64,000 bases of DNA, from the NCBI RefSeq assembly GCF_036365525.1, contig NC_090411.1, positions 31,884,432 to 31,948,431 on the forward strand, written 5' to 3'. This stretch comes from Heterodontus francisci (taxonomy: Eukaryota). Under the pieces are notes generated by a model. It did not search any database. It was not told where the DNA came from and saw only the letters and a program-made list of their open reading frames with translations. Positions 18 through 63,724 of this stretch are shown here, piece by piece; position 1 is the first letter of the stretch; each line of letters begins with the position of its first letter. The position numbers were made by a program, and so were the translations under genes.

Positions 18-173
18 TTGTGTGACTTCCTGGAGACTCACTACTTGGATGAGCAAGTGAAGATGATCAAGAAGCTTGGCGATCACATCACCAACCTGAA
101 GAGACTGGGAGCCCCTGACAATGGCATGGGAGAGTACCTGTTTGACAAGCACACGCTGGAGGAGAGCGACTGA
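18..173 (+). CDS. Ferritin (H/middle-type) copy 1, last coding exon only (exons 1-3 lie upstream of the window)
   Basis: cag acceptor ends at 17; reads [57 protein letters not shown] at 310-315. Confidence 0.93.
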
Positions 174-1309
174 GTCAGTCACTGCAGTCAGTTTATTGTG
201 TTTGGTATTTCTGTTACTGTAATGGTGTAAGAAGATTCCCCTCTGTTCTTTAGAGAGTTGTCTTTGTACAATGAGTTGAGTCTCTTGTGGCAGTGTAATG
301 TTAATTGTAAATAAACTGCTCAATATTGGACTGGATTTTTCCTCTTAATGGAATTGTTTAACTTATTAATTCAAAATGTGGTTTGCATCAGACTGGAATT
401 CCACTGGGCTATAGAACAGCTTCATCATGAGGTTCAGCTGAGGGTTATCTAATAATCCCATCTGGTATAATGCTTGATTTTTAGGCATGTAATTTCCTTA
501 TTACTTTCAACAATAATTGAACATTGTTAACTGCTTGCTCTTGCATCTTTTAACATTGTAAAACATTCCATAATGCTTAACAAGACTGTTAAACAAAATA
601 TGACATTGAGATACAAGGAGAGAAGACAAGTGACCGAAAGCTTAGTCAAAGAAGTGTGTGTTTATTTTTAAAAGGAATGTTTGGAAGAGGTTTAAGGGGA
701 GATCACGAGAAGCTTAAGTACCAAGAACTCTTCCCACTGGTGCTGAATATTCTCTATAAATTTCACTAATGCCTAAATACACAAATACTAACTGCACCTG
801 GTTAAAATGGAAAAGGATGCTTTGGAATGAGTTAATGTTGTACTATTTCAGTCCCAGTCTCTGCCCTAGGAATGAGCAGTTCTGGTATTTAATAAGCTAC
901 CAGTCTCAGTCTGAGTTCTGATGATGGGATACACCTGCTCTAGCTCACTCAAATTCATAACTGCTGCTTCAGTCTTCCTGCTATGGCTGTTGTATCCAAA
1001 GTCGGAGCTCCCTGAATTCCAAATATTGAGATGTATTACAATTATGTGACTTGGAAATTAACCCAAAATGCCATAATTTCACTCCTTTTCAGGAGGGAGG
1101 AAGTAAGGATTCTGGGGTAGAAAAGGGACTTGGTTCTGAAAATCTTACACCACCTCTCTATTGAATAAATCTATTTAGGCACTCCCCTTTTTTTTTTCCC
1201 CCTTCCAAGAAAGCTTGGATAAGCTGGTGCAGTTAGAGGAGAGTGTGTGGAAATGTTCCTCAATCTAATGCTGCTGGAAGCAGTGAACATATTTCATTAA
1301 ATACATGAA

Positions 1310-1930
1310 GCTCAAACCACATGTTGGCATCCTTCCATCTATGAAAGATGATGGACATGAAGTGAACAAACCATTTAGTCATTTACAGCACAGAAGGAGC
1401 CCATTGAGTCCATATCAGCTCTCCACGGAGCTATGCTGTCAGTCCCAGTCCCTGGCTTGATCCCTATCATTGGGGTGTCTTCTCTTGGTGCACCTTTGCT
1501 GATGGCTATGAAGGGCAATCCTTGATTGGCACATTCTGCCACAAGTGCTGCACCTGAAGTTACCAAGTGATGCTAAGTTGTTTTTGGCATTGGCACCTGT
1601 GTCAATCTACTCTGGCCATTTGTTGGCATGGTAGTGCATGCCAGTCCACTGGATGTGTCACCATTTCCCTCTTGTGCCAGCTGGTGCCTCCCAGGTGTGA
1701 TATTCGACCTTTAGGGTCTTCATATCATGCTTACAAGCATCCTTGAAGTGGAGTTTTGGCTGCCCCACTGATCTGCCTCTGGCTATCTCACCAGACCTTG
1801 GGTATGTGACCATCTTCCATCCTGCAGACATGTCCGATCCACAGAAGCTGCTTCAGTTTGATCGGCGCCAACACAGTTGGGAGCTCTGCCTTTGAGAGGA
1901 CTGCCACATTTGTGATTTTGTCCTGCCATC
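1310..1930 (-). mobile_element. Degenerate RTE-clade LINE 3' fragment
   Basis: Minus-strand ORF 1788..1997 contains LLWIGHVCRMEDGHIPK, resembling the W-GH--RM---R-PK motif at the C-terminus of RTE ORFs; boundaries approximate. Confidence 0.65.
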
Positions 1931-2039
1931 GAAAACAGAGATTTAATCCAAGACAACACATCTCATCACCTAATCCAGGACTCAACCACTTTTGCAATGA
2001 AACCAGATGTCAACACATTGGCTCTCAGACAAATACCAA

Positions 2040-2310
2040 TGTGAGGCAAAAGGACCGAAGGGGAGAGATGAGAATTACTTTTAAGCAGCGAGCTGATATG
2101 ATCTGGAATGCACTGTCTGAAAGGGTGCTGGAAACAGATTCAATAATAACTTTGAAGAGGAAGTTGGATATATACTCGAAAAGGAACTAAATTGCAGCGC
2201 CATGGGGAAAGTCCAAGCCAATGCGACTGATTGGATAGCTGTTTCAATGAGCCAGCACAGGCACGGTGGGCTGATTGGCCTCCTTCTGTGCTGTATAAAC
2301 CTACTATAAG
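2040..2310 (+). mobile_element. Old CR1-like LINE 3' end fragment
   Basis: ORF remnant F-QR---IWNAL-E-V-E-DS---LKR-LD followed by CR1-type 3' tail (ggcctccttctgtgctgta...). Confidence 0.65.
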
Positions 2311-2464
2311 TCAGAGTATCATCATTTTAATCTGATTCAAATATTCTTTAGCCTCATGGAAAGTTAACCATTAAAGGACTCATCTAACATACAGAATTAA
2401 TGGGCAGGAAAAGACAGCTGGCCCATCAAGCCTGCCCCAAAACACACTGCAGCAAATGGAGACG

Positions 2465-60784: not shown

Positions 60785-62448
60785 AGATTCAATTGGATTC
60801 ACTTTGAGAAAACTCAAAGTAGCCAACATCAAATACACCATTGACAAGATTCTACTCAAGCGATTAGGAAAAATTGAAGAACATGGAATTGCTTGAAACC
60901 TTTAGACATGGAGTTGGTTGGGAGGTAGGAAACAGAGAGTAGGGATAATGGGTATGAACTCCAATTGGCAGGATATGACTGGTCATCTCTCCCAGGGATC
61001 TGTACCAGGGTCTCGGTTTTTCATTACATTTATAAATGACATGAAGGAATCGAGAGCCATATATCCAAGTTTGCTAATGACACTAAGTTAGGTGTTACAG
61101 TAGGTAGAGTAAATTGGAGCAGAAAATTGAAAAGAGACATTGATAGATTGTGAGTCGCCAAAACTGTGAAAGATGAATTTCTATTTGAGATAGAGTGAGG
61201 ACAGAGAGACATAAATCAGAATATTTTCTAAATGGTGAGGAGCTAGGAACTGTGGAGGCGCAGAGAGAGTTAGGGGTCCGTGTACAGAAATTATTAAAAG
61301 CTAGTGGACTGGTATATAAATTAATTCAAAAGTCGAATAGTCTTCATCTCAAGGGGTCTGGAATACAAAGGGGTGGAGGTTATGCTATATTTGTATAAAG
61401 CTCTGGTTAGATCACATCTGGAGTACTGTGTTCAGCTCTGATATATTGACCTTTGTGGGAGTGCAGCACAGATTCACCAGAATGATACCAGAGATAAAAG
61501 GGTTAAATTACGAGGACAGTTTGCATCAACGACTCTTGTATTTCTCAAGTATAGAAGAGTAAAGGATTATTATAATTGATGTGTTGAACATGAATACTAG
61601 ATTTGATCAGGTTGGTTATGTCGGTGCTGCTATAGTTCTTGTTCGGTTTCTGTTCTGAAAAGATCCCAGTAGTAGCTGTCTAAGCATATTTGGGACACCA
61701 AACCAAACAAGGGACAACTGACATCTTTCCTTATCTTCACTTTTTTCTTCAAGAATTAGCAACTATTTGACCAAAGTATTCTTTTTGCCGTTTTTTTGTA
61801 ACAGAGCTCGAAAAAGAAAATCTCTTTTTTTGTGGTTATCCGGTGTGTGTGTGTATGTATCTGTGCGAGGTGCTGAGGTAAAAGGAACTTTCATATTTCA
61901 ATCTGTGTATTAATGCTTTGCCTTGTTACTGCTTAAGTCTTGTTTTATAATAAACTGAAAATTCTATTGTTTATTAAATAAACCTGGTTGGTGTATTTTA
62001 TTTTGGGGTAAAAATAGAGTCTATGATTGACCGTATCGGTAACTGGGTAAACATTTAAATATATGTTGTGACCTGTGGGGAACTGGAACTAGAAAAAACA
62101 ATGCCCTCCTCCCACCTCGGTCAGAACAGTATATAGAGAGAAACTATTTTCCCTGGTGGGGCAGTCCAGGACAGGAGGTATAATCTGAAAATTAGAGCTA
62201 GACCATTCAAGGGTGATGTCAGGAAGCATCTCTTCACAAAAAGGGAAGTAAAAAGCTGGAACTGTCTCCCCCAAAATGTTGAGATCAATTAAACATTTCA
62301 AAACTGAGACTGTTACATTTTTGTTAGGTACGGGTATGAAACAATATGGAACCAATGCAGGCAAATGGCCTGAAGACACAAACCATGATCTAATTGAATG
62401 GCGGAACAGGCTTGAGGGGCTGATTGGCCTCCTCCTGTTCCTATGTTC
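60785..62448 (+). mobile_element. Old CR1 3' fragment abutting the copy 11 promoter, interrupted by LTR B
   Basis: Collinear with 34080-36692 and 50945-53095. Confidence 0.75.
61614..62128 (+). mobile_element. Solo LTR family B, internally deleted duplicate
   Basis: Same insertion site; ends TCAGAACA; roughly 500 bp missing internally. Confidence 0.72.
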
Positions 62449-62464
62449 CAATCACAGTATAATC

Positions 62465-62656
62465 ATCCAAACCTGCCTGAATTCCACAGCTCTCATTGTC
62501 TCTGGGTCCAACCCCACAGCCCGGCTACATTGTTAATTGGTGCCTGGATTCATGAATGATTCCTGACTGGCTACCTGGAATTGTCAATCATCATTAATGA
62601 TGTCATTCCCCTGTTTGAATGCAGGCTGTCCCAGCAGTATAAATACAAGAGCTTGT
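62465..62656 (+). promoter_or_regulatory. Conserved proximal promoter of copy 11
   Basis: TATAAA at 62638-62643 within the shared block. Confidence 0.72.
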
Positions 62657-62716
62657 GTAGGAATCAGTTAGATTGTTGTTGTTTGAACTTAGCTTCTGTT
62701 CGTAGTAAAGATTATG

Positions 62717-63724
62717 ATGGCCTCTCAAGTGTGTCAGAACTACCACAAGGACTGTGAAGATGCTGTTAACAAGCAAATCAACCTGGAGCTCTATTCCTCC
62801 TATGTTTATCTTTCCATGGTGTGTATTGTTTTCTTGGGGTCCTATTTCAAAGTTAAGAATGAATTTCAATGCATTTTTGAGTAGCGAGAATTTTTCTAGG
62901 CCAATCAGTTGGGTTTATAATTTATCTCTCTCGTTCCCCCGAGACTTAAATCAGTGAACACCCTTGAAATAAGGACTCTATTCCTTGCTCTATAATATTT
63001 ATGTCCAATTTTGAAAGTAACTCCGAGGTTCCATGAAGTTTCTAATAGAGGATTCATGTTGAAGATGTATAAATCTAGTCATCATTTCCAACTTGGATGG
63101 CAACAATTAAGTTCAGTAACTAGTTAGTGAAACATTGTCTGTCTTTCCCCTTTTTTTTTTGTAAATGAGTAAATTTTGTGGTGTTGAGCTCCTTCTTTGT
63201 TTTGTATGAGGAGTAATGATCTTGCATGAAGCAGTAATCTAAGTCTTTCTCTACTGAATGAAGAGAGAAAAAAACTCACTTGCATCTTCATTGGGGGGAC
63301 AAGGGATGTCCTGCTGATAATTATAGCTTGAATGATGAAATGCAACTTTGATCCAAATAGTATTCCTGCCTTCTGTAATGTCACAGGGAGGGGCATTTCA
63401 ACATATTTAGCATTTTATAGCATAAACTTCAAAAACCAAGCCCCTTAATTGAAAGCAAATTCTTCTGAGGTAAAGAATGGGTGACTTATTTACCATGATG
63501 TTGCTACCATTTTTGACTTGGCCATAAATGAGATTGGGTCTGACGCCCTGTCCTTTTCATTTTGCTTCTACCTGCAGTCCTATTACTTTGACCGGGATGA
63601 TGTTGCCCTGCGTCACTTTGCTGAGTTCTTCAAGGAGCAGTCACATGAGGAACGGGAGCACGCTGAGAAACTGATGACATTCCAGAATAAACGTGGAGGC
63701 CGAATCATCTTGGAGAACATCAAG
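62717..63724 (+). CDS. Ferritin copy 11, exons 1-2 (gene continues beyond the window)
   Basis: Exons 62717-62818 and 63578-63724; [13 protein letters not shown]...[27 protein letters not shown]. Confidence 0.92.

Follow-up and report, generated by a model that had tools for sequence, protein, structure and literature searches.

Why do the exons of a tandemly repeated ferritin gene remain nearly uniform while its introns drift apart, and what is such a gene array for? This question is raised by a 64-kb slice of horn shark (Heterodontus francisci) DNA from NC_090411.1 (hereafter, the window), within whose ferritin array the divergences given below were measured. An earlier note had interpreted the array as a birth-and-death cluster supplying either a high dosage or a combinatorial pool of slightly different subunits; the main signal, exon-confined concerted evolution, was overlooked there. 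Our reading, which we hold to be reasonably probable, is that of an elasmobranch cluster that lacks IREs, is separate from FTH1, has been shaped by unit turnover and exon conversion, and would serve ovarian dosage.

The array was delineated by BLAST with query exons taken from the first complete copy, and the splice sites and translations of the gene models were inspected one by one. As the earlier note had described, there are 11 units and a truncated exon-4 piece, and both window edges cut a unit; all lie on the + strand, and every exon was matched at an E-value no worse than 1e-32. The description of 11 four-exon genes is right about the number of units, but four exons are visible within the window in only 8 of the 11; in each of these 8 units, the 4-exon/3-intron structure is present. 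The edge-cut units are U1 (18..173), of which only exon 4, encoding a long C-terminal tail, is included and the rest lies upstream, and U11 (62717..63724), of which exons 1-2 are included and the rest lies downstream. Among the nine units clear of the edges, six are intact and encode 173-176 aa, and these are the six complete copies recognised before: U2 (3928..6025; exons 3928-4029, 5003-5149, 5358-5483, and 5870-6025), which encodes a 176-aa ferritin with a long tail, and U4 (13238..15623; short tail), U5 (17855..21446), U6 (24803..30094), U7 (36955..39224), and U9 (53374..55643), which each encode a 173-aa ferritin. The U5 protein is identical to the database protein P0034 (Heterodontus francisci), and intron 2 of U6 is 3.66 kb long, its insertion being common to U8.

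The remaining three units are broken. U3 (7513..9407) is a pseudogene that has lost its ATG and carries a stop and a frameshift in exon 1 and a 2-nt insertion in exon 4; despite these decayed exons, its exons 2-3 nearly match those of the intact copies. U8 (43870..49654) has open exons 1-3 and a 2-nt loss where exon 4 begins, and U10 (57149..59105) is 5′-truncated, retaining exons 2-4 and the last part of intron 1, with no promoter or exon 1 found. The remnant unit (39890..40907) comprises the 3′ part of exon 4 (39890-39988; 2-5 mismatches per 90 nt against seven copies) and a downstream flank with about 65-70% identity to the other units. Its clean exon piece was considered as proof of conversion and left out of the count, because recent deletion of a live gene is equally possible. 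The units are spaced by about 6 kb. Tandem Repeats Finder detected only five short arrays in the window, no non-ferritin host gene was recognised within the 64 kb, and RVT_1 was found in 4 of the 9 spacer or intron ORFs examined, two of them above the curated cut-off. The birth-and-death part of the earlier interpretation stands, on the grounds of a nested duplication tree, the 3 broken units among 9, the remnant, and the copy-specific insertions.

The ferritin domain spans the whole protein (PF00210, E=4e-38; PDB ferritins, E about 1e-82). Judged by this domain and the four-exon gene, the array proteins are vertebrate cytosolic ferritins, for which 24-mer assembly and the oxidation and storage of iron are predicted. 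All seven ferroxidase residues (E24, Y31, E58, E59, H62, E104, and Q138) were found in all six intact copies, in agreement with the earlier note; these numbers are presumably offset by 3 from the H-chain numbers (E27/Y34/E61/E62/H65/E107/Q141). The conservation of these 42 positions was also considered as a sign of selection on each copy and rejected: with 21 departures in 1014 residues, its chance probability is 0.42. The M-type nucleation residues E54 and E61 are present in six of six intact copies, with H or R at position 57; the ferroxidase set together with E54/E61 constitutes the M criterion, according to the accessible part of PMC4117605. The array proteins share with teleost and amphibian M ferritins the four exons, the full ferroxidase set with E54/E61, and the lack of an N-terminal extension; the amphibian side of this comparison is represented by frog M chains in the PDB. 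The tree against FTH1, FTL, and M ferritins that had been proposed earlier was realised in part, with 43 proteins including no teleost M or mammalian L. The array clade (100/97) is apart from the FTH1 clade (99/97), which contains chimaera and skate FTH1; with the amphibian and reptile (turtle) M-like proteins in this set, the array proteins form an open polytomy. Of the features of an FTH1 H chain, the array genes keep the ferroxidase ligands; orthology to FTH1 is not supported by this tree, and no IRE was detected.

The lack of an IRE was examined in the segment conserved 5′ of every copy with exon 1, which is typified by the promoter and 5′ UTR of U2 (3650..3927, + strand). This segment carries a TATA-like box 65-79 nt 5′ of the ATG; CCAAT-type boxes occur in most of the aligned promoters at 0-3 per 300 nt, not clearly over the background of 1.1. 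Rfam gave no match at the gathering threshold; at E<=10, six matches of chance level appeared, and no IRE was among them. The IRE loop motif is absent from nine of nine leaders, which are predicted to be 35-49 nt long, although a non-coding exon further upstream could still add to them. Salmon M ferritin genes have the same 4-exon structure and, in contrast to the horn shark copies, carry IREs (PMC4117605, accessible part). Oocyte-type E-boxes, and CPE-like motifs in the 3′ UTR, were also looked for and showed no consistent pattern.

A clear contrast is seen between exons 2-4 and the rest of the unit. Over all 45 pairs, exons 2-4 had a mean pS of 0.041; the 16 pairs that set U2/U3 against the other units gave 0.043, and the 15 pairs within U6-U11 gave 0.040, with a non-coding divergence of 0.150 in this last set. 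Divergence is 0.14-0.30 in those introns that can be aligned and 0.20-0.40 at the synonymous sites of exon 1, and between U2 and U5-U11 an alignment of introns and 3′ flank is absent altogether. In each of four disjoint pairs, the synonymous divergence was below the non-coding divergence (p=6e-8, 1e-7, 0.001, and 0.01); in pairwise tests of this kind, pairs are non-independent and the counts small (about 80 synonymous sites). Between U2 and U6, exon 1 shows 5 synonymous differences at 19 sites and exons 2-4 show 1 at 81 sites (p=0.0008), so that exon 1 serves as an internal control. U3 differs from U2 by 21 changes in the 258 nt of exons 1 and 4 and by 3 in the 273 nt of exons 2 and 3 (p=8e-5). 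Moreover, five of the six shared variants in exons 2 and 4 require 2-3 changes on the promoter tree, and three of the seven shared exon-1 variants also conflict with it; R60W, which lies at a CpG, may have arisen more than once. Exon-confined gene conversion therefore appears to act over the birth and death of whole units: the homogenised pattern itself is observed, and DNA-to-DNA conversion is what we infer from it.

Two explanations without conversion were weighed against these data. Pure birth-and-death under strong purifying selection, synonymous sites included, draws on the high conservation of ferritin and on the exon GC3 of 0.59-0.70 as compared with an intron GC of 0.39, from which a codon preference can be concluded. 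We regard it as highly improbable: the exon-1 synonymous sites are free to diverge, the exons of the pseudogene U3 are heterogeneous, and long- and short-tailed copies hold the same lineage-specific amino-acid changes. Some synonymous constraint may nonetheless contribute. The other, an error of assembly or polishing by which copies were duplicated or made alike, is practically negligible. Near-identical exons are prone to read mis-mapping, but the introns and spacers are 14-30% divergent or cannot be aligned, the insertions are copy-specific, private variants are kept in the exons, and many sharks with independent assemblies show the same pattern in their proteins.

The position of the boundaries bears on the template. 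In old pairs, identity is 0.92-1.00 within the exons and drops to 0.26-0.36 in the introns at a distance of 16-25 nt from the exon; at the acceptors, it ends straight after the final CAG. This feature would suit a spliced template, in which abundant oocyte ferritin mRNA, reverse-transcribed or direct, overwrites germ-line exons singly; such a template would account for the splice-site boundaries and also for why exon 1, the 5′-most exon, is the least homogenised. The reverse-transcriptase fragments in the window and the ovary-specific expression of the largest Greenland shark ferritin cluster (10.1101/2024.09.09.611499, Sahm et al., 2024 preprint, accessible part) point the same way. However, all 27 introns that can be seen in the window are retained, identity runs 7-8 nt past the donors of exons 2 and 3, and in young copies some flanks are better kept up to 60 nt (0.02-0.09 versus 0.13-0.17). 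The last codons and the 3′ UTR escape homogenisation, an argument that was raised against such an RNA route for KRTAP1 (bioRxiv 10.1101/282418, accessible part). The weak exon-1 signal is also confounded, exon 1 being the shortest exon. We thus give the RNA template a small but real chance. If true, roughly a hundred ovary-expressed genes in an array would have been kept uniform for >250 My through their own spliced transcripts, an ongoing large-scale flow of information from RNA to DNA in a vertebrate.

The variants that escaped homogenisation are informative about function. The private changes in exons 2-4 comprise 28 nonsynonymous and 8 synonymous ones, which meets the neutral expectation (p=0.68), and those of the intact copies comprise 13 and 2-3, respectively. 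A designed pool of purposely different subunits for mixed 24-mers is unsupported, because the copy-specific variants look neutral. No two of the six intact proteins are the same (157-167 identical residues out of 169), and the long/short C-terminal dimorphism, which recurs in several shark orders, could be functional; against this, the variants are mostly private and partly of the CpG type, conversion removes them, the exons are homogenised rather than diversified, and the proteins cluster by species lineage, not by subtype. We consider this part of the earlier interpretation very unlikely. The near-neutral private variation also suits many functionally idle copies, as expected if a silent majority is overwritten from a single expressed master copy or a few of them, with unequal crossing-over setting the size of the array as a side effect. 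The broken units, among them a dead copy with clean exons 2-3, agree with such a view. It is nevertheless unlikely in our judgement. Exon 1, which is unconverted between the old subgroups, is under purifying selection (U2 versus U6, 5/19 synonymous and 0/83 nonsynonymous; p=0.0001), and the promoters can still be aligned, with a divergence of about 0.12-0.22, in comparisons where the introns cannot. In addition, shark ferritin clusters are reported to be at least 250 My old, with >85% of the copies full length (10.1101/2024.09.09.611499, accessible part).

The pattern extends to other species at the protein level. The array ferritin matched protein clusters of up to 180 members, and among the matches listed, 117 of 120 were shark, ray, or skate proteins, the others being from chimaeras (2) and a salamander (1). 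Multi-copy tandem ferritins are accordingly common to elasmobranchs. In protein-level trees, the proteins group by shark order: in a 53-protein tree, 7 changes suffice for 7 taxon groups (shuffled mean 30.9). The window clade had a support of 96/83 in one model and 86/82 in another, where the bootstrap was unsettled. A clade of the 18 short-tailed forms was rejected (p-AU 6.5e-5), which speaks for conversion only on the premise that the short tail had a single origin, as we infer. Array-type proteins and one single-copy ferritin are apparently on one contig in 11 of 14 species, by indirect evidence. Conversion into this neighbouring gene, hinted at by one horn shark residue, was rejected, because in 11 species the single-copy ferritin is no nearer to its own array than to other arrays in any of five blocks (permutation p 0.23-0.87).

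These results can be combined into the following scheme. The window would be a slice of an elasmobranch ferritin mega-cluster whose copies belong to a chondrichthyan lineage separate from FTH1. Whole units are born and lost via unequal exchange and via deletion; the introns and spacers of these units drift and gather retroelements, as is seen in the window. Short non-allelic gene-conversion tracts ending near the splice sites may then repeatedly overwrite exons 2-4, and exon 1 among close relatives only. Since such conversion would wipe out private mutations and carry lineage-specific residues across the entire array, the copies would come to encode nearly one protein. Many conserved promoters together with short IRE-less leaders may allow iron-independent bulk synthesis in the ovary, and the ferritin would stock large yolky oocytes, by extrapolation from the Greenland shark cluster, to whose ovary-expressed genes the horn shark array is putatively orthologous. 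The likely purpose is accordingly dosage, an iron-independent ovarian ferritin supply with presumed expression, and a high dosage plausibly fits the expression of that cluster.

If this holds, sharks maintain an IRE-free, very-high-copy ferritin lineage for the ovary, which bears on the iron provisioning of yolky eggs. The array is also an unusually well-powered system for gene conversion: it offers many intron-containing paralogues in many assembled species, divergent introns as lineage markers, and dead copies as neutral controls, so that the question of a DNA or an RNA template is directly testable. Exon-based trees or dS would misdate the duplications as recent and species-specific, and such misdating would weaken claims that link ferritin copy number to the longevity of one shark. 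An FTH1b expansion in the Greenland shark has reportedly been described in a later journal paper. Searches of the literature outside subscription journals and bioRxiv supplements turned up no study that addresses gene conversion in the ferritins of sharks.

The expansion itself, which the earlier note took as unusual, is already in print, in one paragraph with H/L labels. In its accessible part, the preprint describes >100 ferritin copies per cluster in the Greenland shark, labelled FTL and FTH1, with synteny in the white shark; in that part, 'gene conversion' and 'concerted' have no matches and no evolutionary mechanism is given (10.1101/2024.09.09.611499). A second Greenland shark preprint (10.1101/2025.02.19.638963) has no matches for ferritin. 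The clusters of both sharks resemble the horn shark array as large, ancient tandem expansions of mostly full-length copies, and very probably all belong to the same locus family. The horn shark array differs from the published account, as far as accessible, in lying outside FTH1, a placement at odds with those labels, in lacking an IRE, in its exon-confined homogenisation, and in its unit spacing of about 6 kb. Tandem ferritin copies were likewise interpreted as a dosage adaptation in the hadal snailfish (PMC10746142, accessible part), where fthl27 has 14 copies tied to ROS tolerance; those copies differ in being recent, broadly expressed, and found in one species. The closest parallel is the mammalian KRTAP1 array, in which, according to the accessible part of bioRxiv 10.1101/282418, the coding regions evolve in concert, the flanks radiate, and the boundary is abrupt, by short-tract conversion and selection. 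In the horn shark array as well, the within-genome similarity of the coding regions is far over that of the flanks, synonymous sites included, and the coding sequences group by lineage (order), as seen at the protein level only. KRTAP1, as described there, consists of a few single-exon genes, whereas the ferritin array, with its three introns per gene, is homogenised exon by exon; exon 1 is partly spared there, and whole units turn over.

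Self-comparison and exon BLAST of the window revealed 11 ferritin units (U1–U11, in window order), spaced 3.2–12.2 kb apart, and one exon-4 remnant between U7 and U8, all on the + strand. When splice junctions and translations were inspected unit by unit, six units were intact (U2, U4, U5, U6, U7 and U9) and three were broken: U3 lacks the ATG and carries a stop and frameshifts, U8 is missing 2 nt where exon 4 begins, and U10 has neither promoter nor exon 1. The window edges cut U1 and U11. All seven ferroxidase residues are kept in the six intact proteins, an outcome with a chance probability of 0.42, so few residues vary. 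The array is real, and the earlier note had described it accurately. Its units turn over. A 3.5-kb intron-2 insertion, 13% divergent, is common to U6 (about 26050–29170) and U8 (about 45100–48630) and absent from U7 between them, while intron 3 is common to U6 and U10 (9%), U7–U9 having another type; by this distribution the units are mosaics produced by unequal exchange. Between U6 and U7, a − strand retroelement whose two long ORFs overlap (419 and 319 aa; 31357–33346) gave a weak RVT_1 match below the cut-off (E = 2e-4); from its motifs, we take it to be Penelope-like. LINE-type reverse-transcriptase fragments, presumably CR1-like, occur at 10759–11892, 41778–42281 and 27351–27701, with RVT_1 above the cut-off at 10759–11100 and 41778–42278. 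A 330-nt repeat in three copies, 91–92% identical and in both orientations (22450–22777, 47848–48176 and 59694–60022), is probably a SINE.

Homogeneity among the copies is confined to the exons. Synonymous divergence in exons 2–4 averaged 0.041 (range 0–0.088) over all 45 pairs of U2–U11, with exon 2 only for pairs involving U11. It was 0.043 in the 16 oldest pairs (U2 or U3 against the rest), many of which have no alignable intron, and 0.040 in the 15 youngest pairs (among U6–U11), whose non-coding divergence was 0.150. Synonymous and non-coding divergence were uncorrelated (rho = −0.10 across the 28 pairs, not independent of one another, that had 300 or more aligned bases), and the synonymous deficit was significant in each of four disjoint pairs (p = 6e-8 to 0.01); the comparison is conservative, since local alignment underestimates intron divergence. 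In the old pairs, identity falls from 0.92–1.00 over the last 15 exon bases to 0.26–0.36 at 16–25 nt inside the intron: it collapses immediately beyond CAG at acceptors, and persists for 7–8 nt before dropping at donors.

Constraint on synonymous sites is opposed by exon 1, where synonymous differences between subgroups amount to 0.20–0.40 of sites. Between U2 and U6, synonymous differences number 5 of 19 in exon 1 versus 1 of 81 in exons 2–4 (p = 0.0008), and nonsynonymous differences in exon 1 number 0 of 83; these counts indicate that synonymous sites are free to vary and that both lineages were long under protein selection. Events separating the dead U3 from U2 number 21 in exons 1 and 4 (258 nt) versus 3 in exons 2 and 3 (273 nt; p = 8e-5). 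On a promoter-based tree of nine units, five of the six shared exon 2/4 variants require two or three changes (one of these five is a CpG change and could be recurrent), and three of the seven shared exon-1 variants require extra changes. Exon 4 of U3 (9250–9407) carries the adjacent changes L152Q and K153R, the same pair as in the U9-like copy P0008 from beyond the window, and retains E159, as in most other sharks; this tract may have been imported or left unswept.

The pattern was probably produced by non-allelic conversion in short tracts between genomic copies, and its restriction to exons may arise because only there does selection maintain enough identity or favour the products. A bold alternative is that RNA or cDNA serves as the template. 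It fits the exact boundaries at acceptors, the weakness of the signal in exon 1 and expression in the germ line; however, none of 27 introns has been lost, identity continues into the donors, flanks are partly conserved among young copies, and 3′ UTRs are not homogenised.

For the comparison across species, 6 window proteins were aligned with 66 database hits of 165–190 aa; of these 72 rows, 53 were retained after removal of 18 with gaps or mis-annotated exons and one duplicate of U5. Copies cluster by taxon, the 7 groups requiring 7 changes (shuffled mean, 30.9), Lamniformes and Carcharhiniformes not being clean clades, and the window clade received support of 96/83 in one analysis and 86/82 in another. 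Tails come in a long form (about 176 aa) and a short one (173 aa), which coexist in horn shark, sevengill shark, smoothhound, basking shark and carpet sharks, and lineage-specific residues are common to both forms. A single clade of the 18 short forms (versus 27 long) was rejected (p-AU 6.5e-5), which argues for conversion provided that the short tail arose once, as its recurrence at the same position suggests.

Private changes in exons 2–4 (28 nonsynonymous versus 8 synonymous) fit the 4:1 site ratio (p = 0.68); in intact copies alone they number 13 versus 2–3. They look like recent mutations due for erasure rather than a curated set of subunits, and so do not support the combinatorial pool of different subunits that had been proposed; of the differences, only the tail dimorphism might be a maintained one. 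Cys occupies position 6 in five of the six intact copies and Arg does so in most outgroups, and position 60 in sharks is R, W, Q or C; both patterns fit CpG decay spread through conversion.

An exon 3 search returned 133 proteins, and the 120 matches listed were nearly all from sharks and rays. Among horn shark models, P0034 is identical to U5, and P0012 matches U8 exons 1–3 plus adjacent DNA (100% in the stretches checked), which identifies the window as horn shark DNA. Five more on the same 39-Mb contig correspond to no window unit, so the array reaches past the window. Two of these look like another copy of the U8–U10 block. Models P0009 and P0008 match the spacer after U8 (50537–51067; 94% aa) and the U9–U10 arrangement (57430–57594), though with different residues, which implies duplication of a multi-unit block elsewhere in the array. 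Database clusters led by sevengill shark, sawshark and bamboo shark proteins have 180, 138 and 127 members, respectively, counted regardless of species. In Scyliorhinus torazame, model P0036 joins fibronectin-III and tyrosine-phosphatase domains to a ferritin of the array type; this hints that an array has a receptor phosphatase gene as its neighbour, and provides a synteny lead.

Frog M and human H chains match the array proteins with about equal scores. A tree of 43 named proteins unites the array copies in a chondrichthyan clade (100/97) distinct from FTH1: the FTH1 clade (99/97), which contains chimaera and skate FTH1, excludes them. The tree leaves the array in a polytomy with amphibian and turtle M-like proteins, in a set without teleost M or mammalian L. 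The array proteins contain E54 and E61, given as M-chain nucleation residues in PMC4117605, and start straight at the ferritin fold without a signal peptide. In the same tree, an apparently single-copy elasmobranch ferritin outside the window (P0125, P0129, P0130, P0132–P0138, P0140, P0145, P0146 and the last domain of P0001) forms its own clade (100/99). Its N-terminal extension of roughly 30–55 aa, arginine-rich and almost acid-free, resembles a mitochondrial presequence in composition, and in 11 of 14 species it seemingly lies on the same contig as ferritins of the array type; it may be a mitochondrial ferritin that arose independently.

In the literature searched, from which subscription journals and preprint supplements were out of reach, exon-by-exon concerted evolution, IRE loss and non-FTH1 identity were not found. 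Shark ferritin expansion is already known, and the horn shark array is a further case. Sahm et al. (10.1101/2024.09.09.611499) give 155 FTL-labelled and 179 FTH1-labelled copies for the Greenland shark, about 80% of them within three clusters that have synteny with white shark; they put these clusters at 250 My or older and report ovary-specific expression of the largest. Zebrafish follicles are rich in ferritin transcripts, and ferritin in amphibian and snail eggs is cited in the same source (PMC1488847). By analogy, a dosage role in the ovary is likely for the array. Salmon H and M genes carry IREs (PMC4117605), whereas none was detected in the horn shark window DNA. A TATA-like box 65–79 nt upstream of the ATG predicts leaders of about 35–49 nt, and the IRE loop motif is absent from them in nine of nine units. 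Finally, the same exon-restriction argument has been made for KRTAP1 (bioRxiv 10.1101/282418), and is here extended to the horn shark array.
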